Positions 6,351-46,400 are shown, counted from the first letter of the stretch. The stretch: 64,000 nt of DNA from a virus (IMGVR_UViG_3300044630_005137:1-64000); one strand, 5' to 3'. Translations and numbers: made by a program. The notes: generated from the letters alone by a model not told the origin.

Positions 6351-7115
6351 TTAGCAGGTTTCTCCGCTAGAAATAGCTCTATCATTTAAATCTTGAAAAC
6401 ATGTACCATAAAGAGTATGTCTTTCTCCATTTTTTACTGGAGTTACACGGTGAGTAAATTCTTTTGTCATTGGTATTGATATTAACATCCCAGGCTGTGG
6501 CTTAATAACATATGCCTTGTAAGCAAATTCAAGCTGGCCATCTTCAAAATCATCATTCAGATAAATAGACCAAGCTGCAGTCATTCCAAAATCATTAAAG
6601 TCTGGATCACCAAGCTCTGCGGCCATGCTCTTTTCCCAATGCCACTGATATGCACCGCTATGATCAGAATCATCTAGAGGCCAAAAAGATTGTAGAGTTG
6701 TATCTTCGTTTAATCTATTTGGAAGCACAACTTTCATTCTATCAAATACTCCTTCAGATTTATAGAATAGCTCTGGGTGGTATCTTGAATCAGTTTCTTC
6801 TGGAAATATTGCACTATTACTTAGATCTATTCCGCGTGTTGGGCATATTGTGCCTTCTGGATGTATTCTGTAATTAACGCCAATAAATTTATTTCTAATA
6901 GAACTAGATCTAGAAGTTAAGTACCAGCCAGTTTTCTCATCACAGAATGGCTTAAGATACTCTAACTCTTCTTTTTCTAAAAAGTTAGGTATATACCATA
7001 GTTCCTTATCAATTATAACTTTTCGGTCTTCTAATGTTTGTTTATTTTTTAAAAAATAATCAATAAACTTAATATCTCTTTCAGATCCAGAGTTGCTTAT
7101 CTCATCAAATTCCAT
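6351..7115 (-). CDS. 2OG-Fe(II) oxygenase, prolyl-4-hydroxylase-like (HxE variant)
   Basis: NFLEKEE, HWE, IYLNDDFEDGQLEF, HRVTPVKNGER. Confidence 0.85.
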   Translation of the reverse strand: MEFDEISNSGSERDIKFIDYFLKNKQTLEDRKVIIDKELWYIPNFLEKEELEYLKPFCDEKTGWYLTSRSSSIRNKFIGVNYRIHPEGTICPTRGIDLSNSAIFPEETDSRYHPELFYKSEGVFDRMKVVLPNRLNEDTTLQSFWPLDDSDHSGAYQWHWEKSMAAELGDPDFNDFGMTAAWSIYLNDDFEDGQLEFAYKAYVIKPQPGMLISIPMTKEFTHRVTPVKNGERHTLYGTCFQDLNDRAISSGETC

Positions 7116-7417
7116 TATTCTTTTTCCTCCAATGGTATATCTTTTATATTTTCATTAAAATACTCATCTGATAACTCATAAAACCACTTTGTAAGCTGAT
7201 CCAATGTTATCTTTCTTGTTTCTATCTTATCTAAATGGGTGTTGTTAAGATTAACTAAATAGGTTCCGTCATCTTCTTTATTATAAGAAACCATACCAGT
7301 TTCAGTCATAAAAGAATAATCATATGCATCGCCGTTTTTATCGATCCCCTCGGAATTATCTGGAGATCCAAAGATAAAGGTACCGTGGTGCTTGACAGCC
7401 TTTTCTAAATCAAACAT
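7115..7417 (-). CDS. acidic hypothetical protein between the two oxygenases
   Basis: overlaps both neighbours (translational coupling). Confidence 0.7.
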   Translation of the reverse strand: MFDLEKAVKHHGTFIFGSPDNSEGIDKNGDAYDYSFMTETGMVSYNKEDDGTYLVNLNNTHLDKIETRKITLDQLTKWFYELSDEYFNENIKDIPLEEKE

Positions 7418-8300
7418 CTTCCTCTGTAATTATCTGGTCAACAACTACTCCAGCTGGAACATTACCAGCTTTAATTGCTGCCTCTTGATTTCTTCTAGCA
7501 TTACACTTAATGTCTGCAGAAGTCAAGCTTTCCATTAGTCCTTCTGGTAATTCTTCTGGGTTGTCTACTCCAGCATATGGATTTTCTAGCAAAGGATGTG
7601 CTACTTTGTCTTTCCACTGCTGCTTTAATTGATACTGATGAATTCTTTCCTTAAAAATTAATCTTTCCCACTCTTGCAGCTGTGCTTCAGAGTACCATGC
7701 ATCTGCATAATCCCAGAATATCACTATGGTATATCTAGTTCCTGCAGTAATCTCGGTAACGCTATGAATATTCTCTACGCCTCCAGGAAATGACACAAAA
7801 GATCCAGTAGGTGGAACAACATCTAGATTATGATCTCTAAACTTTAAAACTCCACCATCATAATCTGGCTGGCTGTTTAAGTATATTCCAGAGTATTGCT
7901 TGTTATCAGCCCAACCCATGTCTTCGCCATCAAGGTCTGTGTTATCTGAGTGATCGTTTGCGTAAGCACCAATCTCCCACTTCTGTGCATGCATACTGTT
8001 AATCTTCATAGGCCTTCCAGCAGCATCAGAACAATACTGAATCATTCTTTGTCTTAGGGTTGCCATGTATTCTTCAGTTATTGAAGTACCATGATCTTTG
8101 GTAAATGGAGAAACGACATGCATACCGTAAGATCCGTAGAAGCAAATAAATCTCCACTCTTCCTCATTTGCGTTAAAGAATTTAATTAATTCTTCACACT
8201 CTTCTTTAGAAAGAAAGTTTTCGTACTGCCAAATCCCAGTTCCCCCTCCTCCTAGGAGTTTTCCTCCGAGTTGACTTGTGGTCTGTGATAATGCTTCCAT
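7410..8300 (-). CDS. 2OG-Fe(II) oxygenase, prolyl-4-hydroxylase-like
   Basis: ENFLSKEEC, HSD (HxD), IYLN..DYDGGVLKF, HSVTEITAGTRYT. Confidence 0.9.
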   Translation of the reverse strand: MEALSQTTSQLGGKLLGGGGTGIWQYENFLSKEECEELIKFFNANEEEWRFICFYGSYGMHVVSPFTKDHGTSITEEYMATLRQRMIQYCSDAAGRPMKINSMHAQKWEIGAYANDHSDNTDLDGEDMGWADNKQYSGIYLNSQPDYDGGVLKFRDHNLDVVPPTGSFVSFPGGVENIHSVTEITAGTRYTIVIFWDYADAWYSEAQLQEWERLIFKERIHQYQLKQQWKDKVAHPLLENPYAGVDNPEELPEGLMESLTSADIKCNARRNQEAAIKAGNVPAGVVVDQIITEEDV

Positions 8301-8302
8301 AA

Positions 8303-8479
8303 TTAAACCTTCTTTCTACCAAATTTTTTAGGTGGAACTGCTGGTGTTTCTCTTCTAATTCCATGCTTATTGACATCAATTTTCATTGGTGGTCTTTTTT
8401 CTTGTATACCAGATTTAAATTTACCCTGAGAAGGATTCTTTTTTGTTGCCTCTCCAGAGTTTACAACATTTTCTGACAC
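8303..8479 (-). CDS. 58-aa Lys/Pro-rich peptide (MSENVVNSGEATKK...PAVPPKKFGRKKV)
   Basis: hand-translated; GTG start overlaps upstream TAG; AAGGGAG RBS. Confidence 0.7.
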   Translation of the reverse strand: MSENVVNSGEATKKNPSQGKFKSGIQEKRPPMKIDVNKHGIRRETPAVPPKKFGRKKV

Positions 8480-8586
8480 TATGCTCCCTTAATTTGTGAG
8501 ATGGTCACAACATTGTTACTAGCTGGTGATGGAGCTGATTCATTTTGAATCTGCTCATCTTTTCCACATGAACAATCTTTACACAT
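8479..8586 (-). CDS. 35-aa peptide MCKDCSCGKDEQIQNESAPSPASNNVVTISQIKGA
   Basis: hand-translated; TAATG overlap; GAGGA RBS. Confidence 0.7.
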   Translation of the reverse strand: MCKDCSCGKDEQIQNESAPSPASNNVVTISQIKGA

Positions 8587-8678
8587 TATTGATTCCTCTG
8601 ATCTGATACATCCTGGATACTAACTTCTTTAACTCCAGTCTCGCTGCCTACGCTTTCGCAACCGCATTCAAAGCACAT
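8586..8678 (-). CDS. 30-aa peptide MCFECGCESVGSETGVKEVSIQDVSDQRNQ
   Basis: hand-translated; starts 1 nt after upstream stop. Confidence 0.7.
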   Translation of the reverse strand: MCFECGCESVGSETGVKEVSIQDVSDQRNQ

Positions 8679-8679
8679 A

Positions 8680-8832
8680 TTACTTAGGACCTTGAGCCTG
8701 CGCTTGGTTTGAAACGTCTGTTGATGGGAATGCTGCCTTTGGATCAGCTGCGTACTGCTCGTTGTTTCCCCATACTGTTGAATCGTTTACCTTTGGTGAT
8801 GTAAATCCGTTTAAATCTTTTCCGTCTGACAT
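8680..8832 (-). CDS. 50-aa peptide MSDGKDLNGFTSPKVNDSTVWGNNEQYAADPKAAFPSTDVSNQAQAQGPK
   Basis: hand-translated; AGGAG RBS; promoter TGCTATAAT at 8890-8898. Confidence 0.75.
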   Translation of the reverse strand: MSDGKDLNGFTSPKVNDSTVWGNNEQYAADPKAAFPSTDVSNQAQAQGPK

Positions 8833-8907
8833 TTTATTACTCCTATAGGTTATTTATTTAAGCGGGACTAGTATTCCGCTTATAGGACTATTATAGCATT
8901 TAGTTGA

Positions 8908-9170: not shown

Positions 9171-9388
9171 TAATTAATCTTCCCACCAAATTTTGACCAT
9201 GCTCTTTCATGTAGAAAAAACCCTATCATTTCGCATGCAGTGTAAATAATTGCAAATGCCCCAGCATACTCCCAATGAGCTTCGCCAGTAATAGCCATTT
9301 CAAAGAAGTAAACTAATGTGCCAACAAATCCAATATGAACTGCTGGCCAAGTAATTGATTTATAAAAACTTCTTTTCTTTGATTCCAT
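9170..9388 (-). CDS. DUF2061-like small membrane protein
   Basis: [14 protein letters not shown]...FFLHERAW. Confidence 0.75.
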
Positions 9389-9594
9389 TATTTTGTTTTC
9401 TTAGCCGAAGTTTTTTTAGCCGAAGTTTTCTTGGCTGGTGCCTTCTTGGCTGGTGCCTTCTTGGCTGGTGCCTTCTTGGCTGGTGCCTTCTTGGCTGGTG
9501 CCTTCTTGGCCGAAGTCTTAATTTCTTCTAGCATGGCTTCAACCTGAGATTCAACTGAATTGAATCCTAACCAATTTTTTAAATTCTTTAACAT
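9388..9594 (-). CDS. histone-H1-like/PAKK-repeat basic protein
   Basis: (APAKK)5 plus (TSAKK)3. Confidence 0.75.
9428..9510. repeat. perfect 15-bp tandem repeat (TTCTTGGCTGGTGCC x5 + partial)
   Basis: directly visible. Confidence 0.95.
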
Positions 9595-9740: not shown

Positions 9741-9763
9741 ATATATATTTTATCATAATAGTA

Positions 9764-9793: not shown

Positions 9794-9800
9794 AAACTAA

Positions 9801-11774: not shown

Positions 11775-11984
11775 CTATTCTCCTTTTAGTTCGTCCGCTG
11801 CATTATTAAACTTATTCATAAATGTTTGAATAACCCAGAGTGCTGTCTCACCAGCATTTGTAGACATCGCTTTTGAAGCCTCTTCTGTTCTATCTTCAAT
11901 GGCAAGGGCGTTGTACCATTTCTGGTACAACTCCTCACCAATTTCCTTGATTATTTCTTCAAGGATAGTTAACTTGCTATCCAT
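11775..11984 (-). CDS. hypothetical protein
   Basis: ORF track, coupled to neighbours. Confidence 0.7.
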   Translation of the reverse strand: MDSKLTILEEIIKEIGEELYQKWYNALAIEDRTEEASKAMSTNAGETALWVIQTFMNKFNNAADELKGE

Positions 11985-12939
11985 TGATTACTTTACTCAA
12001 CTTAAACAGATAAACATTTTGTCCATAAGAGTTTTCTACTGGATCAGAAGCAGTCTTCATTAATGAAATTAGCTGTGCTGATGTTAGTGTAGGCTTTGTA
12101 GTCTTAAGGTGTACGTACTTTGCAGCAATTACCTGAACGGAAACAGATGTTCCATAAGAATACCCGTTAACATTTCCAGGATAAATAGTTGGCTGCTGGA
12201 TTTCACCCCATAGATCTACAAGGTTTACATCATAGTTACTTGTTAAAGAAACTTGAGGCTTATCTAGATTTAGAGTTTCAACTCCACCAACTGCAATTGA
12301 CTGGCTAATACATGCTGGCCACTCAATCTTGCCCTTCATACTTGGATTTCCAGCACTATTTCCAGAAGGGAAAAATACTGGTACACCAGAGTTATTTAAA
12401 TTAGAAACTACTGTATCAACTGCTGTTGGTAAACAATAAGCAGATGTTGCGCTGCGCTTAATAACTGGAGCATTAGTAGCATGAGATGATGCAACTGCTA
12501 CAATATTGTACTTAGCCTTGTTGTTATTAACCCATGTTAAAGCATTTACAAGGGTGTTTAAACCGTAAGTTTGCTGTCCGCCCTTTGTTGTATTGCCAAC
12601 AATTCTAATAAATACAATATTAATATTTGGATTAGCAGCAATTGCTGCGGAAGCCATTTGTGTTCCATGATTAAAGTTGTTTGTTGATAACATACTAATT
12701 GGAAGAACTGATGCTCCTGCGCCCTCCATAAATTTAGTTTTATTTGGACATGATGGCCAATCTAAAATGCATACCTCAGCAACTAGTCTTGACTTAATTG
12801 ATGGGATTGATGTGTCTAGCGCTGTGTCTAAAATAGCCAATGTTGGGACAACTGTTTTTGGCTTTAGATTTGCCTGTGCAGGCATTGTGGTAATAGCGAG
12901 TGTGCTGGCGATAATTGCCATAGTTATTAGTTTTTTCAT
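11977..12939 (-). CDS. secreted subtilisin-like serine peptidase (S8)
   Basis: ILDT (Asp), NHGTQMA (His), SGN, GTSVS (Ser); signal peptide MKKLITMA..AQA. Confidence 0.9.
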   Translation of the reverse strand: MKKLITMAIIASTLAITTMPAQANLKPKTVVPTLAILDTALDTSIPSIKSRLVAEVCILDWPSCPNKTKFMEGAGASVLPISMLSTNNFNHGTQMASAAIAANPNINIVFIRIVGNTTKGGQQTYGLNTLVNALTWVNNNKAKYNIVAVASSHATNAPVIKRSATSAYCLPTAVDTVVSNLNNSGVPVFFPSGNSAGNPSMKGKIEWPACISQSIAVGGVETLNLDKPQVSLTSNYDVNLVDLWGEIQQPTIYPGNVNGYSYGTSVSVQVIAAKYVHLKTTKPTLTSAQLISLMKTASDPVENSYGQNVYLFKLSKVING

Positions 12940-12946
12940 AAAGCTA

Positions 12947-12975
12947 ATTCTACTAAATGCAGCGATGGTTGTCAA
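12947..12975 (-). promoter_or_regulatory. sigma70-type promoter, leaderless
   Basis: TTGACA-17-TAGAAT, ATG 7 nt downstream. Confidence 0.8.
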
Positions 12976-12979
12976 TAGA

Positions 12980-13159
12980 TTATGAATTTTGTGTTGGGTT
13001 CTTGCGTGGATACCATTTACCAGAATCCATATTTCTTGATTCTGCCGCCTGTTGCTGAGTATTAATAATGTTGCCCATAATCTCATGCATTATATCTAAT
13101 TCAATTCTAAGCTTATATAGCTCAAGCTCTAGCATATCAATTCTTCTTTGTGATCTCAT
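12980..13159 (-). CDS. 59-aa hypothetical protein (MRSQRRIDMLELEL...)
   Basis: hand-translated; TAATG overlap. Confidence 0.7.
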   Translation of the reverse strand: MRSQRRIDMLELELYKLRIELDIMHEIMGNIINTQQQAAESRNMDSGKWYPRKNPTQNS

Positions 13160-15006: not shown

Positions 15007-15308
15007 GCCATTGGCCTTCCCTCTAACTCTACTCTAACTCCATATGACTCAAGTAATTTTTTTGCCTTGGTTACATAGTCTATAACCTTTTCTTTTTCTA
15101 TTCCGTCAAATTGGATAAAGTTATCTTCATATAATCTTAATGCTAAAAATTCTGGATACTCTACAACATCCATTAATAAAAACATAGGCTTCTTTATTTC
15201 TCTAAGTCTTTTTTTCATTTCTGAATTATAAAAAACTGGCTTGTTAGGTTCACCAGTCCATTGATTCATTCCATATTTAAAATGATGATTATCGTAAACA
15301 TTAGACAT
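15003..15308 (-). CDS. hypothetical protein
   Basis: ORF track. Confidence 0.7.
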   Translation of the reverse strand: MSNVYDNHHFKYGMNQWTGEPNKPVFYNSEMKKRLREIKKPMFLLMDVVEYPEFLALRLYEDNFIQFDGIEKEKVIDYVTKAKKLLESYGVRVELEGRPMA

Positions 15309-15612
15309 TTTGTTTTGCCTTTATTTGTTTCCACACTTCTTTTGTTTTGTGTGCATTTTTCATTTTATCCATTAAACCAGATGACAAAAATACACCGCCC
15401 CATACTCCGTACTCATTATTTTTAATTCCCGCATCGCGGCACATCAACATTACTGGGCACGATAAACAACACTGGTCTATAGCCTTAGCCATATTAACAT
15501 CAGACTCATACTGATCAAAAAATAGATTAGTCTCCATGCCATTGCATGCAGCTAAATGCCACCATCTTATTGATTGCTCATCTGAATCTAATTCATTTAA
15601 AATATTTGACAT
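15301..15612 (-). CDS. whiB: WhiB-family Fe-S transcription factor
   Basis: W...AAC, C..CPV...C, GVWGG. Confidence 0.9.
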   Translation of the reverse strand: MSNILNELDSDEQSIRWWHLAACNGMETNLFFDQYESDVNMAKAIDQCCLSCPVMLMCRDAGIKNNEYGVWGGVFLSSGLMDKMKNAHKTKEVWKQIKAKQNV

Positions 15613-15898: not shown

Positions 15899-16786
15899 TT
15901 ATTTATTTGGGTTAATCATTGAAACTTCACCATTTAGCAATTCTTCAATGTGTGAGCATACAACATCCCACTCTTCTTCAAATAGTTTGTACGATCTTCC
16001 ATGTCCTGGTCCTGGTGCAATCTGTTGTCTATGAGAAACCATTAAGATGTGGTCTGATGCAAGCTCTACTCTGCCGCCTTCTCCTACAGCAAGATTAGGT
16101 TCGTGATTTATTCTAGATAGATCTGAACCAAAATCTCCGTAGTCTAGACCTAAATCGTTCATTAGATTTTCTTTTAATGTTTTTTCAACGTCAAGGTTGA
16201 GCACTGAAGGAGAGTAGTGCTTAACAACAAAACCGTCTTTGTCAACTAAGTATTTTTCAAAATTTGCTGCCTGTGTCTGTCCAGAATAAAATCCTTGGCA
16301 TAACCACCATGAGTAGTATTGGTCAAACGGGAATTGTATTCCAAGCTCTAGCGCTTTACCCCATAAATGACTTGAATGCTCAACAATTACATTAAACACT
16401 TCGCTTGGTTCTCCGAATGGCTGATCTATTCCATTTAGATCTCCGACTAATTCTTTATTTGGAATTGAGTTTACTTTTTCGGAAAACCCAAAAGTTGTGC
16501 CATACACGTCGCATCCGTAGTTTTGAGAATCCATTCCTTCAACTAGTCCTTGAGACCATGCACCTTTTGTAACTCCTGGACCACAGTAATCATTTGTTGG
16601 GAGTGCTACAATTTCAAAGCCTCTGTCCTTATATTTTTGATGAAGCCACTCTAGGACCTCCATTTGATTTGCATTTCCACAACCTACTGTTGTGTTTACA
16701 AACATAGTAACCTTACCCTTATACTTTTTTAAAAAGTCTGGTGTACCGTCTGCTGCGTTTAGTTCTAGATCATATAATGATTTCAT
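15899..16786 (-). CDS. glutathione-peroxidase-like (BtuE-like) protein, divergent
   Basis: KGKVTMFVNTTVGCG, KYKDRGFEIVALPTND, NFEKYLVDKDG. Confidence 0.85.
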   Translation of the reverse strand: MKSLYDLELNAADGTPDFLKKYKGKVTMFVNTTVGCGNANQMEVLEWLHQKYKDRGFEIVALPTNDYCGPGVTKGAWSQGLVEGMDSQNYGCDVYGTTFGFSEKVNSIPNKELVGDLNGIDQPFGEPSEVFNVIVEHSSHLWGKALELGIQFPFDQYYSWWLCQGFYSGQTQAANFEKYLVDKDGFVVKHYSPSVLNLDVEKTLKENLMNDLGLDYGDFGSDLSRINHEPNLAVGEGGRVELASDHILMVSHRQQIAPGPGHGRSYKLFEEEWDVVCSHIEELLNGEVSMINPNK

Positions 16787-18206: not shown

Positions 18207-18437
18207 CTATTTATCGTCTTTTCTAAGTGGTATAGTTATTAGCCAAATTACAGTAGTTATTAATACTGCAATTCCAACAATATCTCTAGCTGAGCCCGTC
18301 AAAGTTAGCCATGCTATAAAGAAGCCTAAGAGGGTGAATGCCTGGGCAATTAGCTCCATTCCCGCGTCTTTGAACCATTTAGCCAAGCCCTTAATTGCCT
18401 TGCCTGTAAGATTAAACATCTTTTTGATTATCTTCAT
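18207..18437 (-). CDS. 2-TM membrane protein
   Basis: QAFTLLGFFIAW..DIVGIA. Confidence 0.7.
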   Translation of the reverse strand: MKIIKKMFNLTGKAIKGLAKWFKDAGMELIAQAFTLLGFFIAWLTLTGSARDIVGIAVLITTVIWLITIPLRKDDK

Positions 18438-20635
18438 TTGTTCCTCCTTATCATTGCCCCTGCAATTTGTGATGCAATGACCACTGGGACAATTACTTCC
18501 TGCGCTTTTTCTCTTTGATCATCTGTCATATCCATACCTAACTCAGAGAAATTAGATAGCAGTTCTACTGGGTCCACCGCAAATACCGCTCCAAGTGGGT
18601 CTGCTAAGAATGCTTCTGTTTGTACTTCTGTTACTGCATCTGCTAATGTAAATGGCATTGGAGTTTCTCCTGCCTCCGCCTCTCTATCTGTAAACTCAAC
18701 GAATGCTTCTGCCAGTGCTGGGTTAGACTTCATCTGCTCAGCAATTTGTGCAACCTCTGAAGGCTTAATCCCAAGGTCTTCTGCAACCTCAGCCTTTGCT
18801 TCTTGAGTCAAGGCTCTAAGTGTTTGGCTAACTGCTGTTACTTGTTCAGGGGAAAGAGTAACTAACTTATTATCCTTGCTTGTAAGGTTAGCAATAACTC
18901 CAGATAAATCTTCTACTGTTCCTGTACCCTTTTCAGGAATAAGTTCTGCTAAAACCTCATCTTTAACTTCTACATCTGGCTCAGTCCATGGGTTTTCTTC
19001 AGGCTCAGGATCTGGTCCTGGTTCTGGTGAGGGTTCAGGCGTAGGCTCTTCTGTGGGTTCCTCAGTAGGCTCTGTAGTTGGTTCTGTAGTTGGTTCTGGG
19101 TCTGGTGTAGGTTCTACTGTAGGTTCAGGAGTTGGTTCCTCTGTAGGCTCTGCTGTAGGCTCAGTAGATGGCTTTGGTGTAGGAGTGGGCTTTGGCGTAG
19201 GAGTGGGCTTTGGTTCCTCAGTAGACTCTTCTGTAGGCTCAGGGCTTGGCTCCTCTGTTGGCTCACCTGTAGGTTCCTCTGTAGGCTTTGGAGATGGATC
19301 ATCTGTAGGTTCATCTGTAGGTTCAGTACTTGGTTCTGGGGTAGGTTCTGGAGTTGGTTCTGGAGTTGGTTCTGGAGTAGGCTGATTGGCTGCAGCGTTA
19401 GCTGCTGCCTGAGCAATAGCAGACTGAATCTCTCTTTGTAATTGTTCTTCATAGTAACGCCATGCGTTATCAATCGCAATATTAAGATTATTTATTGACT
19501 GCTCGTATGCATCTTCAGCATTATTTTTATTTTGCAATGCAGTGGCAACATTTAAAACTGAGTTGTTATATTCATTTGTTTTATTAGTTAGTGTTTGATT
19601 GTAACCATTTAATGTTGAAACTGCTTGATTATAAACATTTAGTTTGTCATTATATACATCTTGTGCTGAGTTCTTTGCAGCAAGTGCGTTGTTGTAGGCG
19701 TTTGTTTGTTCTTGAGTTGCTCCAGATCCATGAGAAAATGTATTAAGATTGCAACTAAAGTCTTGTCCCCATACTCTTGGGTTGCCAGCATAGTCACAAC
19801 CTGCACCAGTCCATCCTCCAGGGATAGCCCAGCCAAGATGATAAGATCCAGGTCCTCCACCGTTGTACCACCAAATCTCTACATCAAATGTTTTGTTTGT
19901 AGTTACATCATATACAGGAGAGTAATTACTCCAAGTTGTTCCTTGCTCTACCCAGTTGTCTATGGCCAATGATCCGTCAATATACATTCTAAAACCATCA
20001 TCTGTATAACCAGCAAAGTAGGTTTGAGTAAACCATGACGGTACTGTTATTTTTCCAGTAAATTTAACTATAAAGTTTTCATATCTATTACCACAAACTG
20101 GGCGAGTCATATAGTTTCCATTTAGTGTTCCACTACATAAGAATTCATCTGTGGCTGCAAGTCCATTAACCCTAATTAAACTATAAACATCATATGCCAG
20201 ACCAGCAGAACCAGCACTGTCTAATGCTTGCTGAGCGTTTGACAGATTGATGTTTGCTACTCCAAGGGCATCGTAGGCATCATTCTTATTGTCTAAAGCA
20301 GTGGCTACTGTTACTGTTTGTCCGTCTACTGCTGATTGGGCTAAGTCTTTTTCTTCAAGTGCTGTGGTTTCTGCGTCAAGGGAGTCATCATATAGGACAG
20401 AGGTTTGTGTCCTGGCTTCTTCTGCAGATACGGCAAGATCATATTTGTCTTCTGCTTCTTGGATTAAGGATATAAATTCATCCTTGTAACCAAGGTCGTC
20501 AACGCTATTGTTTAGCTCTTCAATTTCTTGAGCTGCTAAGCTTAGTGGATCATCAGAATAAGCGGGTGACATAAAGAGCCAACCAAATGCAAGCATTGTG
20601 GCTGCTGTTATTCTAAATAATTTATTCCTTGTCAA
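18434..20635 (-). CDS. surface protein: signal peptide, coiled coil, PA14 domain, Pro/Glu/Thr-rich linker, C-terminal hydrophobic tail
   Basis: FTGKI..YTDDGFRMYIDG..IDNW..WYNGGG (PA14); EPTP repeats. Confidence 0.85.
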   Translation of the reverse strand: MTRNKLFRITAATMLAFGWLFMSPAYSDDPLSLAAQEIEELNNSVDDLGYKDEFISLIQEAEDKYDLAVSAEEARTQTSVLYDDSLDAETTALEEKDLAQSAVDGQTVTVATALDNKNDAYDALGVANINLSNAQQALDSAGSAGLAYDVYSLIRVNGLAATDEFLCSGTLNGNYMTRPVCGNRYENFIVKFTGKITVPSWFTQTYFAGYTDDGFRMYIDGSLAIDNWVEQGTTWSNYSPVYDVTTNKTFDVEIWWYNGGGPGSYHLGWAIPGGWTGAGCDYAGNPRVWGQDFSCNLNTFSHGSGATQEQTNAYNNALAAKNSAQDVYNDKLNVYNQAVSTLNGYNQTLTNKTNEYNNSVLNVATALQNKNNAEDAYEQSINNLNIAIDNAWRYYEEQLQREIQSAIAQAAANAAANQPTPEPTPEPTPEPTPEPSTEPTDEPTDDPSPKPTEEPTGEPTEEPSPEPTEESTEEPKPTPTPKPTPTPKPSTEPTAEPTEEPTPEPTVEPTPDPEPTTEPTTEPTEEPTEEPTPEPSPEPGPDPEPEENPWTEPDVEVKDEVLAELIPEKGTGTVEDLSGVIANLTSKDNKLVTLSPEQVTAVSQTLRALTQEAKAEVAEDLGIKPSEVAQIAEQMKSNPALAEAFVEFTDREAEAGETPMPFTLADAVTEVQTEAFLADPLGAVFAVDPVELLSNFSELGMDMTDDQREKAQEVIVPVVIASQIAGAMIRRNK
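18985..19385 (-). repeat. degenerate 12-bp repeat encoding EPTP/EPTE/KPTP
   Basis: visible in translation; synonymous codons diverged. Confidence 0.85.
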
Positions 20636-21346: not shown

Positions 21347-21351
21347 TTTTG

Positions 21352-21395
21352 CTCCTTTTAAGCGAGTTAAATTAGTGACCCCATTTGGCGGACAC
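21352..21395 (-). promoter_or_regulatory. structured hsp20 5'UTR, ROSE-like thermometer candidate
   Basis: CUC(G)CU pairs with SD AGGAG leaving a bulged G; upstream hairpin; promoter TTGCAA-18-TATAAT at 21402-21431. Confidence 0.5.
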
Positions 21396-21432
21396 CAATA
21401 TATTATATCATTTTGCAAACTATAATTGCAAG

Positions 21433-21850: not shown

Positions 21851-22135
21851 TTAGACCCAATACTTAATTATAGCAGCTGCGGCGAGCAAAGACCACAGTA
21901 TGTTAAACCAAATAATTGTTGGCAATGTTTTGACTGTTGATGACCAAATAAGCGATAGGCTTGTTATCAAAGCAATAATATAAAGCCACCATATCTGTGT
22001 ATTAAATAAAAGGCCTGGAATAATAATTGCTGCTTTTGTCATAAAAGCAAAGAACTCTACAGTATTAGGCTTATTCCAATAAGACTTATTGCCCATGCTA
22101 CGAAGGGCGAGTATCCATTGTGTTCTAAATTTCAT
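21851..22135 (-). CDS. small multi-TM membrane protein
   Basis: hydrophobic; KTLPTIIWFN. Confidence 0.7.
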   Translation of the reverse strand: MKFRTQWILALRSMGNKSYWNKPNTVEFFAFMTKAAIIIPGLLFNTQIWWLYIIALITSLSLIWSSTVKTLPTIIWFNILWSLLAAAAIIKYWV

Positions 22136-23655
22136 TTAAGCCCATCCAAAAATTCTCTATGGCTCACACATTCTGAAACCTTGTGATTACGATATGTACT
22201 ATAGTAGTCATACAAATCAATAGCCTTTTTGTACTCATTATAAATTTCTACGTATTCTTTGGCAAGTTCTTTATTTATTTTGTCTATAGCAGATCCTACC
22301 ACAAACCAGCTCTTGGACTTCCAATACTCTCCATTGTCTAGTTTCCCTGGCATTCTGCTTTCCCAAATTTTTATCTTATTCCTTAGTTCTTCTGGGGCGT
22401 TTTCATAAGAAAATTTTTCCCAAAATGGTGTGTCTTTCCTTAAAGACATGTAGTGAAAGTATATAAAGTTAAGTATATCGTCATTCATTCTTACAATCTT
22501 TTTATTAAACTCATCTCTTATTTGCTGAGTGTTGCTAACAAATAGGCTTGGTGCGCCAAATATTTCTGTCAGCTGAACCATGCTGACCCAAAGAGAAGTT
22601 GCCTCTAGGGGCTCTACAAAGTTTGCTGCAAGCCCAACGGCAACACAGTTGTTTTGCCAAGGCTCTTCGAATGACCCTGGACTAAAACTAAATCCGCCTT
22701 TATCTTTTCTTGGATATGTTGGAACAAATCCTAGTAATTCTTCTATCTCTTCAATGGCAGATTGCTCTGATATTAAAGAAGAGTCATACACATAGCCACA
22801 GCCAAACCTTGATTGCAATGGGATTTTCCACATCCAACCATATTTCATTGCAATTGCTTCTGTGTATGGAGGAATTGTATCTGTCATTTCAATAAAAAAT
22901 GGGACGGCAGAGTTTGTTGGCAAAAATTCTTTATAGCTTTTCCATTTTGAGTTAAATGTTTTTCCAATAATAAGCCTATGAAATCCACTGCAATCAAAAA
23001 CAAAATCGGAAGGAATGCTATTTCCGTTATCAAGATCTAAGCTTGTTACATTGCTTGACTCATCTAAAGACACTTTGATTATTGTATCTTCAAAAACTTT
23101 AATTCCTCTTTCTATTCCTATCTCTTTAAGCCTTGCTGCAAGTTTTGTAGCATTAAAATGAAAAGAAACAAGACCTATCTGTTTATAGTCTGATATAGAT
23201 TTTCCATCTTTATTTTTTTCAATAATGAAAGGAACTTTGTTATTTTCTGAAACTATTTCTGTAAAGTCTACATTTTTTAAGCTATTGTTTAGTGCAATAC
23301 TTGAAACAAGGATGGGGCTTGAAGACAAAAACATAGAAGAAAGTCCTTCTGTTCCAACAGTTGGGTCTGTAAAGTCAAATCCGTGGTAGTAAAAATCATC
23401 TTGGTTGTTCCATCTAGTAAACTTAATTCCATTTTTTATAGTTAAATCACAATTTTTTACTAAATCCTCTACCCCTATATCCAATGTTTTTAAGAATGCA
23501 GGAAGATACGGAGTAGATCCTTCTCCTGCACCAAGTATGCCAATATCTTTTGATTCTATGACAGTAACATTTAGTTTTGGATAATTCTTCTTTGCTGTTA
23601 AAGCAGTAAGCCAGCCAGCACTACCTCCACCAACAACAACTATATTTTTTGACAT
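22132..23655 (-). CDS. flavin-dependent (tryptophan-halogenase family) halogenase
   Basis: GGGSAGW, GAGEGS, TIKNGIKF (catalytic Lys), DCSGF, GWMWKIPL, FVEPLEATS. Confidence 0.9.
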   Translation of the reverse strand: MSKNIVVVGGGSAGWLTALTAKKNYPKLNVTVIESKDIGILGAGEGSTPYLPAFLKTLDIGVEDLVKNCDLTIKNGIKFTRWNNQDDFYYHGFDFTDPTVGTEGLSSMFLSSSPILVSSIALNNSLKNVDFTEIVSENNKVPFIIEKNKDGKSISDYKQIGLVSFHFNATKLAARLKEIGIERGIKVFEDTIIKVSLDESSNVTSLDLDNGNSIPSDFVFDCSGFHRLIIGKTFNSKWKSYKEFLPTNSAVPFFIEMTDTIPPYTEAIAMKYGWMWKIPLQSRFGCGYVYDSSLISEQSAIEEIEELLGFVPTYPRKDKGGFSFSPGSFEEPWQNNCVAVGLAANFVEPLEATSLWVSMVQLTEIFGAPSLFVSNTQQIRDEFNKKIVRMNDDILNFIYFHYMSLRKDTPFWEKFSYENAPEELRNKIKIWESRMPGKLDNGEYWKSKSWFVVGSAIDKINKELAKEYVEIYNEYKKAIDLYDYYSTYRNHKVSECVSHREFLDGLK

Positions 23656-23701: not shown

Positions 23702-24853
23702 TTAATCCAGGCCCATCTTGCCCTTTGCTATTTTTAATGAGTCCATATCTGGGGCTCCCCAATAACCCAAATACTTGCCAGAAAAAATATCTTCACATCT
23801 TTTTTTAGAGTTAATTAAAATTGATCCATAAAGTCTTTGCCCTGATTTTGATTTTGATTCAAAGTCTCTCCAGTTACTATCTGTATCTAAAGACTTTACC
23901 CTTCCAGGCTCGCCAACAACATCTTTTAGTCCATATTCATCTGACTTATTTAAAGATCCAAGTACTGGTTTTTTTACAGAGAATATTCTGTATCCTCTAG
24001 ATAGCAGCCTTAAACTATAATTTGTTTGATCCCCACTAAAACTATCCTGGGGATCATGCATGATATCCCTTAACATTGAATATTCTCCAAACATAAATGA
24101 TGCATGTACGCAATTTGTTTCCTTATAATCTTTATCATCAAAACCCTCGCCACCAATAACAATTGGAACACCTATATTTTCAGATAAAAATGTTGATCCG
24201 CTATGACTTGGTGCCCAGCCATTTAATGATATCTTAGGAATGCCATTAAAAAAATCAAAATTTAGATTATTGTAATTATTCTCGTAAGGATTTAAAAATT
24301 TAATACCATTCTCATTTAGTAACTCTTGATAGCTATACACATCATTTCTATTTTTGGGGTCATATGTCCAGATGATTCCTGGAATGCAGCTCAATATGAT
24401 ACTATCAATCTCTTCTTCTCGCTTAATTGTGTTGTAATTTTCTATTATTATTTTATCCCAATCATTAGAAAATATTGTGTGGGCATCAATTTGAAAAAAA
24501 TAATCATATCTTTCTTCTGAAGATAAAAGAGCTGCGTTAAATCTTCCATGACCGACCCCCATAGGAACACTAGTTGTCAATTCTGCATAAACTATTTGTT
24601 CATTATTAGTAAAAAATGGATTTGAAAGCATGGAAAGATCTTCTTTTGATTTAAAAGATTTATCTCTATTTGCATCCCAATATGATACTAAATTTTTGTC
24701 TAATATGTTGTTAAAAACTCCAAAGTATAAACGATTTGGATTACTGGCTAAAGACATTGCACTTCTTATAGTCTGCTCTAAAAAAAATTCTCCGCATGCA
24801 GCTATAGTTATAAAAATTGTTTTTTCATCATCATGATTAGTTATGGTATTCAT
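23702..24853 (-). CDS. GT60/Gnt1-like glycosyltransferase (Skp1-hydroxyproline GlcNAc-transferase-like, Pfam GlcNAc)
   Basis: TIFITIAA, LEQTIRSA..ASNPNRLYFGV, GVGHGR, YFFQIDAHTIFSNDWD, FSGDQ..SLRLLSRGY; start MNTITNH. Confidence 0.8.
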   Translation of the reverse strand: MNTITNHDDEKTIFITIAACGEFFLEQTIRSAMSLASNPNRLYFGVFNNILDKNLVSYWDANRDKSFKSKEDLSMLSNPFFTNNEQIVYAELTTSVPMGVGHGRFNAALLSSEERYDYFFQIDAHTIFSNDWDKIIIENYNTIKREEEIDSIILSCIPGIIWTYDPKNRNDVYSYQELLNENGIKFLNPYENNYNNLNFDFFNGIPKISLNGWAPSHSGSTFLSENIGVPIVIGGEGFDDKDYKETNCVHASFMFGEYSMLRDIMHDPQDSFSGDQTNYSLRLLSRGYRIFSVKKPVLGSLNKSDEYGLKDVVGEPGRVKSLDTDSNWRDFESKSKSGQRLYGSILINSKKRCEDIFSGKYLGYWGAPDMDSLKIAKGKMGLD

Positions 24854-24854: not shown

Positions 24855-25523
24855 TTATCCCTGTGCCGCGTTTGACGGGGATATCTCAATAAGATCAATA
24901 TTACATCTCTGAGGCAATTTACTTACCCACAATATAGCATTTGCTATATCTTCTGCTTCCAATGCCCCATGATTATGCTGGTGGGTATTAATTGCTGCTG
25001 GACATACCTCTGTAACCTTTACCTTAAAATGAGATAGCTCTAGCCTAAATAATTTTGCAAGTCCAGATATTGATAGCTTTGAGGTCGCATAGTTTCCTCC
25101 ACCATCATAGAAATGTTTTTTTGCAAATGAAGATATAAAAATAATGGTGGCATTTTCAGATTTTTTAAGGTTTGGTATAAAAAGTTTTGACAAATACATT
25201 GGGCCAGCAACATTAACCATATATGAATGCATAAAGTTATCAGTAGTTTCATTGCTCAGCGCTTTAGCCCCATCTAAGCCAGCACAGGAAGCATTATTTA
25301 CAATTAGGTCTATTGTTTCATCTTTATATCTGTTATAAAAATTATTAATGCTTGTCTCATCTGATAGGTCCAAGTGTTCAATTTTTACATTTTCAATGCT
25401 TAGATTAGTTATTCCTTCTGGATGTCTTGATGTTCCAATTACAAGGTATCCGTTATTAGATAGTGTATAAGCTAATAGGTTACCTACCCCACCGCTTACT
25501 CCCGTAATGATTGCTTTTTTCAT
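24855..25523 (-). CDS. short-chain dehydrogenase/reductase
   Basis: ITGVSGGVG, NNA, S..YATSK. Confidence 0.9.
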   Translation of the reverse strand: MKKAIITGVSGGVGNLLAYTLSNNGYLVIGTSRHPEGITNLSIENVKIEHLDLSDETSINNFYNRYKDETIDLIVNNASCAGLDGAKALSNETTDNFMHSYMVNVAGPMYLSKLFIPNLKKSENATIIFISSFAKKHFYDGGGNYATSKLSISGLAKLFRLELSHFKVKVTEVCPAAINTHQHNHGALEAEDIANAILWVSKLPQRCNIDLIEISPSNAAQG

Positions 25524-25542
25524 AACACCCTCCAATTTTTTG

Positions 25543-42974: not shown

Positions 42975-42975
42975 A

Positions 42976-43164: not shown

Positions 43165-43173
43165 TTGTTTACC

Positions 43174-43392
43174 TTATTCTGCGATTAATGTTAATTCTGC
43201 GGCGAGAACAACTAGCTTTGCATTTATATCTGCAAGCTGTGTATTTAGATCAGCAATTGTTGTTGTGTTTGGTGTGGACACAGCATTTTCAACCTTCAAA
43301 GATACCTGAACATTATACTTTGCATATTCTAGTGATCTTGAATGCTGATTTATTACTGCTTCTTTTTCTTCATTTGTTAATTCATATGTCAT
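43174..43392 (-). CDS. small helical protein downstream of tail fibre
   Basis: AGGAGG RBS; TGGTATAAT promoter. Confidence 0.75.
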   Translation of the reverse strand: MTYELTNEEKEAVINQHSRSLEYAKYNVQVSLKVENAVSTPNTTTIADLNTQLADINAKLVVLAAELTLIAE

Positions 43393-43473
43393 TTTGTGCC
43401 TCCTTTCATATTATACCATTATCATATACCATTTAGCAATATGATCAAAATTTAATTACAGATTAACTATTTA

Positions 43474-46400
43474 TTAAGATGGCCCTATTGCAGATGTGAA
43501 AGCCCCATTAGACCAGCCGCTAACCCCAGCAGAATTCCTTGCTCTAATAAACCAATAATATTGATTAGATATTGGAGCAGTAAATACTTCTGATGTGATA
43601 AGAGGCTGTCCAGGTTGTGGATAATCTATAGTCGCTGAGCTTGAAGGTTTTGTTGCACTTGTTCCCCAATACAACTCATAGCTAGTTGCTCCAGATACTG
43701 CATTCCAGGAAAGCTGTGTATTAGAACCAGATAGGTAAGCTGTTAAACCTGTTGGAACTGCTGGTGTTGTAGACGGGAAGTGTGGTGGGAAGAACGGTGG
43801 GAAGTGTGGTGGGAAGAACGGTGGGAAGAACGGTGGGAAGTGTGGTGGGAAGAACGGTGGGAAGTGTGGTGGGAAGAACGGTGGGAAGAACGGTGGGAAG
43901 TGTGGTGGGAAGAACGGTGGGAAGTGTGGTGGGAAGAACGGTGGGAAGAACGGTGGGAAGTGTGGTGGGAAGAACGGTGGTGTATTTGCAGCTGTTGCAG
44001 TAATAGTATTTGTTGAAGAAACATAAGAAGATGTACCAGAAGAGTTAGTTGCTCTGGCAAAAGATCTGAATATATTTTCTGGCGAAATTGCATCATTTGA
44101 TGTAATTGTATAAGAAGCAGATGTTGTTCCAGTTGCAACAACTGTACTTAAATCTGTTGGTATAGTAGGATAAAGCGCAGTTGTAATAATTGTTTCATAC
44201 GAAGTTGGCGTTGGAGACCATCCAGAAGTTGCTGCGGATATAATACTTCCAACGGTTGATGTTCCAGTTAAAGTAACCGATCCTCCAGAAGGTATTGCCA
44301 CTGTTGGATTTTGAACTGTAAACGTTGCAGTTGCTGTTCCGTTAGGAGAAATTCCATTTGATGCTGTTACAAAAAGTCTCCAGGAAAGTGCTGTGGTCCC
44401 TTGAGCTACAGTTGGAGAAAATGTAGATCCTGTCGCAACTTCTTGCCAAGACCCATTGCTTAAAAATCTCTGCCAAGAATATGCATAAGTTATAGTTTGA
44501 GATCCACTCCATCCTGAAGTTGATGCAGTAAATGTTGTGGATCCGTATGTTCCGCTAGCTGGGCTAACCGATGCTGAGCCTCCAGTTGGTGCAAGTGCTG
44601 GGGGTACGTATGGCGTAGAGGTAATAATATTTGAAGAATATGTTGGTGAGGTTCCACCTGAATTTGAAGCATATGCAAATGCAATAAACCGATCTGGAGT
44701 ACCAGAAGCTTCAGAGTCTGTAATTGTATGTGAAACTTGAGTAGATGCAGACGAAGTGACTAGTGTGCTTGACTGTGTTGGGTTTGCACCAGTTGCCTTT
44801 CTTATTTCAATGTAAGATGAGGTTGGAGAATTTGTAAATGAAGAAGTTGCAGTTATTTGAGTACGTGCTTGAACTGTACCAGATGGAGAAATAGATACAG
44901 AACCTACTGGTGCAGATACTGGAGCAGAAACGGTTACGTCATTTGAATTAGCTGGTGTTGATCCCCCACCATTAATTGCTGTAACAACGCATCTTAATGT
45001 GTTTCCGTACAAGGAAACAAAATTTGCAGGTGGAGTATACGTACTTTGATTATTTGTGCCAGGTGCAGCTGGGTATATAACGCTTGTCTCCCTGTATCTC
45101 CATGAATACGTGTATCCAGTTGGGCTTCCACTCCATGAACCATTTGTCGTTGAGTATTGAGTAGAACCTGCAGTACCAGAACTAGGGGTTACCTCTGGTG
45201 CAGAAATAAGTGATGGTGCATTTACAAGACCAACAGTAATAGTATTTGAATCAACCGTTCCTTGATCATTTGATGCTCTTATAAAAACAGTATAGTCGTA
45301 TCCAGCTGTTAATCCAGTAATTGTTGAAGGAGATGTTGTAACCTGTTTAGATGTAGGTCCTAAGATTGATGATGTTCTTAGGTAGTATATAACATCACTG
45401 CCTCCAGTATTTTTTGTTCCTCCGTATATAATACTTGGAGTAAAAGTTGTTGCAATAGATGTTGAAGATGATTTTGTTGCAGTCAAAAGGCTAGGTGCTT
45501 CTGCTTTTGTGTTTATGTACGCTCCTGGTGCTGGTGAAACTTCACTAACAGAATATCCCTGTGCATTGTGTGCAAAAACTTTTGCCCTAATTGTATATGA
45601 ATCTGGAAATGGGCCAGCCGTCATTGATGTTGCTGCCCAAGTATCTGATAGAGTGTACCATGTACTTAAATCATAATCATAAGCATACTGAACCCTATAG
45701 TAATCTATCGCAGATCCTCCATTGTTTAATGGAGCTTCCCAGGATATAGATATCTGACCTTCACCATAACTTCTGAAAGCAACGTTTTGTATTGAAACAT
45801 TTCTTGCTGGCCCAGGAGCAGTTAATATAACTTGTGTAGTTACTGATCCAGTTATTGAATCTCCAGGAGAAGATGAATTAAATGGTGTGATTCTATAGTA
45901 ATATGTTGTATTACTAGGAAATGGTCCTACTGGTGTAAATGTTCTAGAAGATGTAAGTGTTGCAATTGTTCCATAATTTATAGTTGATCCATATTCAATT
46001 TCAACCGATGTTGTGTTTGCTCCAAATACGACCCCAATAGACCAGCTTGATGTAGTTGAAGATGTTGTTATTGTTGGATCAGAAGGTTTATATTTAAGCA
46101 CAGGAACAGATGTTGATGTATAAACTCCAGCGCTTGTTGCATAAATATTTCTTGCATAAACGATACCAGATAAGGTGTTTGATGTCTCGGTTAAAAAAGT
46201 GTAATCCCAATAGCTATTAGATATCCACCCACTGTTAACATAGCTATTCGCACCTTGATTATTTACTTCATATTGAAAATAATATTCAGTTGGTAAATTC
46301 GTAAATGATGGAGCTGTAATTCTATATGTAGATCCAGGACGCCCTGCAGGCCCCGCCTGTAAAGATAGTACTGCAGATACAGGAGTTGCTACTGGCGTTC

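Follow-up and report, generated by a model that had tools for sequence, protein, structure and literature searches.

The 64-kb stretch of DNA analysed here (the window) is part of the 106-kb genome of a freshwater (lake) siphophage that encodes WhiB, and this gene suggests that the host is an actinobacterium. The window contains two P4H-type 2OG-Fe(II) oxygenase genes separated by a short gene that overlaps both, a GT60 glycosyltransferase gene with an SDR gene on one side and a tryptophan-halogenase-family gene on the other, and genes for two proteins with proline-rich repeats (Table 1). The pair of GT2 and sugar-nucleotidyltransferase genes and the SDR gene named in the original prediction were both recovered, whereas no FkbM/Methyltransf_21 match was found across the whole 106-kb genome and the supposed JmjC oxygenase gave only a marginal 19-residue match to JmjC_2/cupin. 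The halogenase-family gene directly beside GT60 had not been listed before, and small Cys-rich MCxxCxC peptides are encoded upstream of the HxD-type window oxygenase.

Table 1. Features discussed in the text (window positions unless given as genome positions).
Feature	Position	Strand	Remarks
JmjC_2/cupin match	2141..2680	+	marginal
NTP_transf_3 sugar-nucleotidyltransferase-like gene	3824..4489	-	overlaps GT2
GT2 glycosyltransferase	4480..5175	-	overlaps NTP_transf_3 gene
P4H-type 2OG-Fe(II) oxygenase paralog	6351..7115	-	PF13640; HxE for HxD
100-aa protein, no assigned function	7115..7417	-	between both window oxygenases, overlapping each
P4H-type 2OG-Fe(II) oxygenase paralog	7410..8300	-	PF13640; HxD...H...R
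WhiB-family gene	15301..15612	-	context; marks actinobacterial host
PA14 protein, 733 aa, EPTP-type repeats	18434..20635	-	candidate Thr-type GT60 acceptor
Flavin-dependent Trp-halogenase-family protein	22132..23655	-	E 2e-103; 46 nt downstream of GT60
GT60 glycosyltransferase	23702..24853 from ATG; to 24898 from upstream TTG	-	PF11397; 383/398 aa
Classical short-chain dehydrogenase (SDR)	24855..25535	-	1 nt upstream of GT60 start
Fn3-rich structural protein, 1489 aa, PP(F/H)F x17	43474..47943	-	candidate hydroxylation substrate
17-unit array within the 1489-aa protein	about 43777-43980		residues 1322-1389
Oxygenase paralog with degenerate triad	genome 79013-79558		outside window
Cassette of seven oxygenases, DUF6171 and DUF6065	genome 79013-85514		outside window
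Second Fn3 protein, 357 aa, PP(F/H)F x31	genome 86322-87395		outside window

Oxygenases and Pro-Pro-aromatic arrays

The proline-rich arrays that had been predicted in two exposed proteins are both present. The 1489-aa Fn3 protein, whose gene follows the tape-measure and tail genes downstream, carries exactly 17 PP(F/H)F units (10 PPFF and 7 PPHF) between Fn3-like domains. The N-terminus of the PA14 protein resembles a signal peptide and its C-terminus is a hydrophobic anchor; besides the PA14 domain, the protein has a 133-residue E/P/T region of EPTP-type repeats (residues 417-549; 48 P, 29 T and 34 E). Sites downstream of tail-fibre genes are common locations of accessory genes. A collagen-type P4H substrate system was also considered and was rejected on repeat counts: no ORF with at least eight GXY units was found in genome G000, and genome G100 has collagen-like ORFs yet no oxygenase, so that collagen-like repeats do not track oxygenases.

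Both window oxygenases match PF13640 (2OG-FeII_Oxy_3) above the cut-off, with E values of 2e-6 and 2e-7, as proposed originally; however, instead of two such genes the genome has 10 matches, nine of them above the cut-off. The HxD...H facial triad and the Arg/Lys 2OG anchor align across the paralogs, with the exceptions of the HxE window paralog and a degenerate paralog in the cassette. Seven of the oxygenases form one cassette with DUF6171 and DUF6065, directly downstream of the gene for the 357-aa array protein, and this stretch (genome 79-87.4 kb) provides the decisive pairing of array and oxygenases.

Fold prediction was carried out for the array-proximal paralog alone (pLDDT 91). The top PDB matches of this model were all peptidyl-prolyl 4-hydroxylases, namely Pseudomonas PPHD (4iw3), PBCV-1 vCPH (5c5t, TM 0.72-0.74), PHD2, Chlamydomonas P4H (3gze), Dictyostelium PhyA (6t8m), B. 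anthracis P4H (5hv0) and human C-P4H-II (7zsc); its double-stranded beta-helix is thus nearest to those of known peptidyl-prolyl hydroxylases. When an oxygenase ortholog profile was compared with PDB sequences, B. anthracis P4H (6e-6), LH3 (4e-5) and vCPH ranked first, and for the HxD-type window oxygenase the best PDB sequence matches were PiuC and prolyl 3-hydroxylase 1. From the fold and from the adjacency to Pro-Pro-aromatic arrays, we infer that the oxygenases hydroxylate peptidyl proline. Enzymes with the P4H fold have other targets as well, among them EF-Tu and ribosomal proteins, and no protein substrate is known for the PiuC-like paralog in the window. The array gene and three of the oxygenases are represented in RNA-library contigs, which may stem from carried-over DNA.

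The association of arrays with oxygenases recurs well beyond this phage. At least 115 IMG/VR contigs hold such arrays ([12 protein letters not shown]), although many of them are related and the counts are not independent events. PF13640 is present in 47 of 50 whole array-selected records, mostly in 4-9 copies, compared with 311 of 50,697 GenBank phages (0.6%). The median gap at the 84 loci with both array and oxygenase is 713 bp (77 within 2 kb, 82 on the same strand). Among 11 near-complete genomes, the array ORF lies directly upstream of the cassette in nine of the 10 that have one, and the eleventh (G100) lacks both oxygenase and array. The co-occurrence of P4H and Pro arrays on which the original prediction depended is supported by these comparisons. 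Synteny is kept down to ~35-40% oxygenase identity, over two GC classes and several architectures, and loci picked through GT60 rather than through arrays have other motifs beside the cassette (PPTFTA, PPSFTA, PPGFF, PPVYYA and PPMFT). This recurrent partnership suggests what the substrates of abundant and so far unexplained viral prolyl hydroxylases may be.

A different explanation is that the oxygenases are auxiliary metabolic genes or serve host takeover, with host proteins (for instance EF-Tu or ribosomal proteins), nucleic acids or small molecules as targets, and that they adjoin the arrays only through the build-up of accessory genes behind tail-fibre genes, the arrays being unmodified flexible linkers whose length varies by slippage. 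Related multi-copy oxygenases in cyanophages and Methylophilales phages, the PiuC match, the EF-Tu hydroxylase PPHD among the top fold matches, array lengths of 4 to 38 units among close relatives and the description of viral P4H as cryptic (PMC9301287) would all be consistent with this explanation. We nevertheless regard it as quite unlikely, because arrays and oxygenases track each other in presence and absence, including the double absence in G100, because synteny persists at low oxygenase identity, because differently spelled PP-aromatic arrays accompany cassettes at loci picked through GT60, because collagen-like repeats do not track oxygenases, and because DUF6171 stays with the array genes even where these lie apart from the cassette (G063, G030 and G025).

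Small Cys-rich ORFs (DUF6171 in the cassette, MCxxCxC in the window) directly precede oxygenases, and GT60 has a halogenase-family gene and an SDR as neighbours, so that a RiPP-like pathway could be envisaged in which such peptides are the true substrates and are turned into a bioactive product by hydroxylation, halogenation or glycosylation. This seems very improbable, since neither a leader/core pattern nor a protease/exporter set could be recognised, since the conservation of DUF6171 is that of a folded zinc-ribbon-type protein and not of a hypervariable core, and since the Pro-rich arrays are the sole obvious proline-dense substrates.

The GT60 gene and its neighbourhoods

The sequence pattern that had pointed to GT60 was corroborated by a match to PF11397 ('GlcNAc'; E 2e-19; 70.7 bits against a cut-off of 21; profile positions 1-265 of 352), which was recovered again by a six-frame search and is shared by all 116 homologs. 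The QIDAH (DxH) motif, which we take to be the metal-binding motif of the family, is invariant in 28 homologs. The model (pLDDT 86.6) agrees with a GT-A fold, its top PDB matches being GT27 polypeptide GalNAc-transferases (probability 1.0, TM 0.42-0.47), and by analogy the enzyme may transfer alpha-GlcNAc from UDP-GlcNAc to peptidyl Hyp or Thr.

Among dereplicated viral loci, cassette genes are found within 1 kb of GT60 in 19 of 34 clusters at 70% identity and in 12 of 20 at 50%, with operon orders such as array>DUF6171>OX>GT60 (L162) and array>GT60>OX... (G080). In fifteen bacterial loci the distance between GT60 and an oxygenase is at most 29 bp, and in three bacterial ORFs (L287, L224 and L273) the two are fused. 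SDR homologs occur inside the oxygenase cassettes of G056, G063 and G065. The GT2 and NTP-transferase pair lies 1.2 kb from the two window oxygenases, adjoins an oxygenase in G065 and is found 2.3-6 kb from GT60 in other loci; in several loci, a Trp-halogenase-family gene is again present 1-2 kb from GT60.

GT60 is absent, however, from all 50 array-selected records, including the complete G025 and G030, and thus is not required. The complete genome G100 has a GT60 flanked by DUF6065 and neither oxygenase nor array, which indicates that GT60 need not always have hydroxyproline. The neighbours of GT60 in this phage and in its nearest GT60 relatives are SNase, HSP20 and Trp-halogenase genes, and the cassette lies 55 kb away. 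The predicted co-occurrence of GT60, P4H and PPxF arrays held for the GT60-P4H pair but not for GT60 in array-selected records, and the proposal that the phage hydroxylates and then glycosylates its linkers gained support for each pairwise link, whereas the full chain in this phage was weakened by the 0 of 50 count, the solitary GT60 of G100 and the 55-kb distance.

These exceptions would be expected if there were two separate systems, in which the cassette hydroxylates the arrays without adding sugar and GT60 with the SDR, and perhaps GT2 and the NTP-transferase, O-glycosylates Thr of the EPTP repeats or another target, as T. cruzi-type GT60 does on mucins. Consistent with this, the EPTP-bearing PA14 gene is only 3 kb from GT60, GT60 adjoins (E/A)PTP repeat proteins in eight bacterial loci (all within 3.2 kb), seven of which lack an oxygenase, and the family has a Thr-specific enzyme (PMC6939170). 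On the other hand, many viral and bacterial lineages have a GT60 that is embedded among P4H-type oxygenase genes or fused to one, in L162 and G080 GT60 lies between the array gene and oxygenases, and PT-repeat proteins are present in relatives that lack GT60, for example G030. We consider two separate systems unlikely, though credible.

A candidate modification module

Building on the demonstrated domain identities, catalytic motifs, folds, gene neighbourhoods and their recurrence, we favour a module for post-translational modification of the phage's own Fn3 fibre or decoration proteins; its substrates, reaction order, sugar and structural effect are predicted from sequence. The arrays of the 1489-aa and 357-aa proteins would be hydroxylated in the host cytoplasm by the paralogous prolyl-4-hydroxylase-type oxygenases. 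GT60, the coupled SDR and possibly GT2 with the NTP-transferase would form an optional glycosylating arm, with GT60 adding a sugar (GlcNAc by analogy) to Hyp and/or to Thr of the EPTP repeats in the secreted PA14 protein. The product could be a rod of polyproline-II type, stiff and similar to extensins or mucins. That the oxygenases act on the arrays is probable; that GT60 belongs to the same pathway within this phage is doubtful, if quite conceivable, and we hold the module as a whole tentatively, at slightly below an even chance.

A broader proposal, somewhat unlikely at present, is that this phage exemplifies a widespread and so far undescribed class of phage and bacterial system in which batteries of diverged P4H-fold enzymes, each paralog specific for its own position or residue (for instance Pro C4, Pro C3 or aromatic side chains), turn the Pro-Pro-aromatic repeats of fibre proteins into heavily hydroxylated and sometimes GT60-glycosylated rods resembling extensins or mussel adhesives, with DUF6171 and DUF6065 as new partner enzymes or chaperones. 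If true, this would account for the 'cryptic' P4H genes, which in aquatic viromes rank with the most abundant auxiliary genes of viruses, and would give the PhyA-Gnt1 pairing a prokaryotic and viral counterpart, gene fusions included.

Comparison with known systems

Viral P4HA auxiliary genes have been counted in viromes, where their function was described as cryptic (PMC9301287). The multi-copy 2OG-Fe(II) oxygenases of marine cyanophages belong to the same Pfam family and are the sole GenBank phage proteins that the cassette oxygenase matches, but they are only ~27-30% identical, and no link to Pro-Pro-aromatic arrays has been reported. PBCV-1 vCPH (A085R), likewise a small virus-encoded P4H and the nearest fold match by TM-score, hydroxylates Pro-containing repeat peptides sequence-specifically (Eriksson 1999, as cited in PMC7019647), and PBCV-1 has Pro-rich repeat ORFs, but Hyp was not detected in the virions (PMC7019647). 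Unlike the phage, this giant virus of eukaryotes has one enzyme only, no substrate gene next to it and no GT60.

In plant extensins, P4H-hydroxylated repeats are O-glycosylated on Hyp and form rigid polyproline-II rods. Plant extensins and other Hyp-rich glycoproteins have, in the account of PMC5371791, Pro-rich repeats with interspersed aromatic Tyr. They differ from the phage system in using arabinosyl- and galactosyltransferases instead of GT60, the secretory pathway, and Ser-Hyp4 instead of PP-aromatic repeats. The T. cruzi-type GT60 member acts on Thr/Pro-rich mucin-like repeats (PMC6939170), a likeness to the (E/A)PTP proteins beside bacterial GT60 and to the EPTP protein in the window, although it is a eukaryotic Golgi enzyme.

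A close parallel is the Skp1 pathway of Dictyostelium and Toxoplasma, in which the cytoplasmic P4H PhyA makes 4-Hyp and Gnt1 (GT60) adds alpha-GlcNAc in a PhyA-dependent manner (PMC6939170). GT60 and P4H-type genes also lie side by side or form fusions in phages and bacteria, and PhyA is itself among the top fold matches of the phage oxygenase. In contrast to PhyA-Gnt1, the proposed phage module has between 6 and 13 oxygenase paralogs, candidate tandem-repeat substrates within virion-type proteins, DUF6171 and DUF6065 partners and an optional GT60, with presumably no Skp1 and no single-site regulatory target. Skp1 is known from eukaryotes, as are the SCF ubiquitin ligases of which it is part, and neither would be expected in a phage of bacteria. 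We treat the phage system as working like the PhyA-Gnt1 pathway, with P4H acting before GT60, and not as a member of the Skp1 pathway.

Arrays and the oxygenase cassette

The array of the 1489-aa protein contains exactly 17 PP(F/H)F units, as the original prediction had counted, and its reading frame is real, with Fn3-type sequence running on at either side. The protein has three Fn3 matches, and the copies of its 60-nt super-repeat match each other at 100% identity. A second array, free of Lys and Arg and located in a 357-aa protein encoded beyond the window, is built from the identical pair of 12-nt units and is followed, in minus-strand order, by a cassette of DUF6171, DUF6065 and oxygenase genes. 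Ten genes of the whole genome belong to PF13640, the family of the P4H-type 2OG-Fe(II) oxygenases, and Pfam places there both window oxygenases that had been described as P4H-like (E 2e-6 and 2e-7). The HxD...H...R/K residues are kept in the paralogs, except in 6351-7115, which has HxE, and in the degenerate copy at 79013-79558. The oxygenase at 7410-8300 is preceded by a tight run of four small ORFs (50, 30, 35 and 58 aa) leading directly into it; two of them start with MCxxCxC, and the peptides are not Pro-rich.

Features of the window (bases 1-64000 of the source record) and of the whole genome record
Feature	Location	Strand	Basis or remark
Cpn10/GroES	window 5852-6148		
Oxygenase	window 6351-7115		PF13640
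Oxygenase	window 7410-8300		PF13640
Four small ORFs	window 8303-8898	-	
(AKKAP)n ORF, 68 aa	window 9388-9594	-	
Subtilase S8	window 11977-13086		
WhiB gene	window 15301-15612		
Glutathione-peroxidase-domain protein	window 15899-16786		
CHAP endolysin-type protein	window 16939-17568		
HSP20	window 20930-21418		
Trp-halogenase-family gene	window 22132-23655	-	
GT60 glycosyltransferase	window 23702-24853	-	PF11397
Tape-measure ORF, >2571 aa	window 56283-63998	-	continues past window end
Tail fibre with Mtd_N domain	genome 87424-90006		
357-aa Fn3 protein, 31 PP(F/H)F units, Cys-rich tail	genome 86322-87395		
162-aa ORF	directly after 357-aa Fn3 protein gene		
DUF6171 Cys-rich protein	after 162-aa ORF, before oxygenase 84873-85514		
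Oxygenase	genome 84873-85514		
DUF6065	after oxygenase 84873-85514		
Second DUF6065-like protein	after DUF6065 gene		
Five oxygenases	after second DUF6065-like gene; cassette oxygenases together genome 79571-85514		
One degenerate oxygenase	after five oxygenases		
LamG protein	after degenerate oxygenase		

A model of the array-proximal oxygenase (pLDDT 91) found as its best PDB matches peptidyl-prolyl 4-hydroxylases throughout, including a chlorovirus enzyme and Dictyostelium PhyA, and a profile of its orthologs placed B. anthracis P4H, LH3 and vCPH in the top ranks. By sequence, the paralog at 7410-8300 is closer to PiuC and P3H1. DUF6065 emerged from a profile search of the PDB, hhalign against the oxygenase profile and the protein atlas as a mostly viral, uncharacterised family, possibly a distinct family of enzymes. 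A dUTPase fold for DUF6065 was rejected, its sole basis being a non-significant match (Wsv112, E 0.71).

The source record (IMG/VR; 106,226 bp, 91% complete by CheckV) has nearly all of its window genes on the minus strand, at a GC content of ∼37%. It encodes RecA, DnaB, primase, SSB and RuvC, together with a DnaE 57% identical to that of Streptomyces phage BillNye-type siphophages, and near-identical copies of the cassette DNA turned up in numerous metagenome runs on lake water, dated 2020-2024; we read the phage as a freshwater actinophage. Megablast with 12 kb of the window gave no match among GenBank phages. The (AKKAP)n repeat, which fills the C-terminal two thirds of its ORF, may be akin to the basic tails found on histone-like proteins of actinobacteria. 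The array gene and the oxygenases at genome 79.4-81.5 kb are covered, at 90-99% identity, by contigs of four RNA libraries from fresh water, a weak hint of expression from contigs in which strand, transcript ends and expression level are not readable and uncovered parts carry no meaning.

Co-occurrence of arrays and oxygenases

At least 115 IMG/VR contigs match a back-translated 12-residue pattern. The original prediction expected arrays, oxygenases and GT60 to co-occur in relatives. This held for the oxygenases, with PF13640 present in 47 of the first 50 whole array-bearing records, usually in 4-9 copies even on fragments of 4-20 kb, but, in this array-selected sample, not for GT60: PF11397 occurred in 0 of the 50 records, the complete genomes G025 and G030 included, in a search identical to the one that finds the GT60 of our phage. 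Among GenBank phages, the array-proximal oxygenase matches 311 of 50,697 records (0.6%), almost all of them cyanophages and none an actinophage.

Array and oxygenase were found together in 84 of the fetched loci, with a median gap of 713 bp (<2 kb in 77 of 84) and on the same strand in 82, and the array-proximal position is kept by oxygenase orthologs as low as ∼35% in identity. Comparison of 11 near-complete genomes (83-154 kb; GC classes 0.36-0.38 and 0.45-0.46) showed an array ORF directly upstream of the cassette in nine of the ten that bear one; in the tenth (G067) the cassette meets the contig end. A 108-kb viral genome rated 100% complete, G100, has neither a P4H-type oxygenase nor a PP-aromatic array. 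DUF6171 also directly follows secondary array genes away from the cassette (G063, G030 and G025). We conclude that the coupling of oxygenases to arrays is strongly supported.

We considered whether collagen-like (GXY)n proteins might be the true substrates and rejected this possibility because our phage genome is without any and G100 has them without oxygenases. Proteins of the (G-P-Q/T)n type were seen near the array genes and cassettes in several relatives (G080 134170-141778, G065 68001-68720 and G030 77286-78266), their Pro standing at the X position and not the canonical Y. Array length ranges from 4 to 38 units among loci (L015-L129) whose adjoining oxygenases are 70-98% identical, a spread that fits rapid gain and loss of 12-nt repeats.

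GT60 neighbourhoods in viruses and bacteria

The glycosyltransferase proposed to be GT60-like was confirmed as PF11397 by Pfam (E 2e-19), and its QIDAH motif is invariant in GT60 homologs. Searches of PDB sequences with the single sequence and with a profile gave nothing meaningful; the informative search was by fold only, in which GT27 polypeptide GalNAc-transferases were the best matches to the model (pLDDT 86.6). Since tblastn at 1e-5 found no match in GenBank phages, no cultured phage can be named for this GT60. On viral contigs the family is common (340 IMG/VR stretches), and cellular homologs are only 20-27% identical.

Pfam also recovered the GT2, the sugar nucleotidyltransferase (NTP_transf_3) and the SDR (classical) of the original prediction; the FkbM methyltransferase, however, occurs nowhere in the genome, and the supposed JmjC oxygenase reduces to a plus-strand match to cupin that is marginal and 19 residues long. 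The SDR stop codon lies 1 nt from the GT60 start, and 46 nt downstream of GT60 is a flavin-dependent Trp-halogenase-family gene (E 2e-103); the original prediction had neither point. GT60 in this phage and its closest GT60 relatives (38-45% identity) is set beside SNase, HSP20 and Trp-halogenase genes. A Trp-halogenase-family gene was again seen 1-2 kb from GT60 in G063, G100 and the loci L204-L207. As pure speculation, the enzyme might act on aromatic residues of the arrays.

PF13640 was present in 29 of 50 GT60-bearing viral records. The share was 6 of 7 among records with a completeness of 90% or more, and 15 of 16 among those above 50 kb. Within 1 kb of GT60, 19 of 34 clusters formed at 70% identity and 12 of 20 formed at 50% have a gene for an oxygenase, DUF6065 or DUF6171. 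As immediate neighbours (cases, then clusters at 70% identity), we counted DUF6065-oxygenase (125, 25), GT60-oxygenase (27, 17), DUF6065-GT60 (17, 10), DUF6171-oxygenase (29, 5), array-oxygenase (10, 5) and oxygenase-SDR pairs (5, 4). Locus L162 runs from a PPSFTA-repeat Cys-rich protein through a small ORF, DUF6171 and an oxygenase to GT60 (4-nt overlap) and further oxygenases, and the viral genome G080 has an array, GT60, two oxygenases, two DUF6065 genes and ten more oxygenases in that order. Array spellings at GT60-selected loci include PPTFTA, PPSFTA, PPGFF, PPVYYA, PPMFT and PPFF/PPYF. In G100, DUF6065 stands on either side of GT60 in a genome without an oxygenase; about ten DUF6065-family ORFs, these two among them, are scattered over that genome (L307-L312).

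A P4H-type oxygenase was also found in 18 of 80 cellular GT60 loci, at most 29 bp from GT60 in 15, and three loci of bacterial MAGs hold GT60 and oxygenase domains in a single stop-free ORF (L287:2819-6394, L224:6102-12278 and L273:3936-7853). In the L224 fusion, one oxygenase comes after about four GT60 repeats. The coupling of oxygenases to GT60 in general is well supported. The absence of GT60 from the 50 array-selected records, its presence without an oxygenase in G100 and its SNase, HSP20 and Trp-halogenase neighbours in this phage speak against its membership in the same system.

In the high-GC bacterial loci, permissive scanning for Pro-rich ORFs picked up mostly spurious frames, so strict criteria were used instead. 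These yielded eight bacterial GT60 loci with an (E/A)PTP-type repeat protein of at least 300 aa, from Massilia, Cyanobium, Halomonas (two loci), Hyphomicrobium, Noviherbaspirillum and two MAGs. In all eight the repeat protein is within 3.2 kb of GT60, with none in the 3.2-8-kb zone, and seven are without an oxygenase nearby. The large (E/A)PTP or TTKPP Thr/Pro-repeat proteins that adjoin GT60 at L227, L233, L247, L220, L210, L265, L221 and L212 suggest that mucin-like O-glycosylation occurs in Proteobacteria and Cyanobium. The window's PA14 protein, encoded 3 kb from GT60 and on its strand, does contain the EPTP-type region ascribed to it, whose 133 residues include 48 P, 29 T and 34 E; the region lies between a signal-peptide-like N-terminus and a hydrophobic C-terminal anchor. 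The bacterial pairings provide independent, moderate support for this protein as a candidate GT60 acceptor.

A putative pathway and its relation to known enzymes

Beyond gene identities and neighbourhoods, we infer a pathway in which the cassette enzymes would hydroxylate prolines of the array proteins in the cytoplasm. The many conserved, diverged oxygenase paralogs suggest that each may serve distinct positions or sequence contexts, with DUF6171 and DUF6065 as putative partners in array modification. GT60, where encoded, would put sugar on Hyp and/or on Thr of PT repeats; extending or altering the modification may be the role of the SDR, GT2/NTP-transferase and halogenase-family enzyme. The sequence observation behind the original prediction was largely real, and its interpretation, that the phage hydroxylates its own Pro-rich linkers and then glycosylates them, is partly supported: support is strong for the link of oxygenases to arrays and good for a general link of oxygenases to GT60, and action of GT60 on the arrays of this particular phage is only moderately supported.

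In aquatic viromes, few 'auxiliary' genes are as abundant as those for P4H, and their use by viruses was called cryptic in a 2022 survey (PMC9301287); the PBCV-1 P4H is the one characterised viral P4H, with an unknown role in vivo (PMC7019647). In the present locus and more than 100 relatives, Pro-Pro-aromatic fibre arrays directly beside the enzymes provide a concrete candidate P4H substrate, so that the question of viral P4H becomes directly testable with recombinant proteins. We did not find the array, oxygenase and GT60 module described in the literature, although reports in other journals are possible. Among known GT60 enzymes are the Skp1 GlcNAc-transferase, which is Hyp-specific, and the polypeptide GlcNAc-transferase of T. 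cruzi (PMC6939170). If the chemistry holds, phage virions would have a new structural material in Hyp-based, glycosylated polyproline rods, and in a freshwater host group that is dominant this would matter for how fibres bind receptors, resist proteases and behave mechanically. To our knowledge, GT60 had been described only for the glycosylation of Skp1 in protists and of mucins in trypanosomes; it now appears as a family common on phage contigs, repeatedly beside P4H-type oxygenases and with Thr/Pro-repeat proteins as a second recurrent partner.
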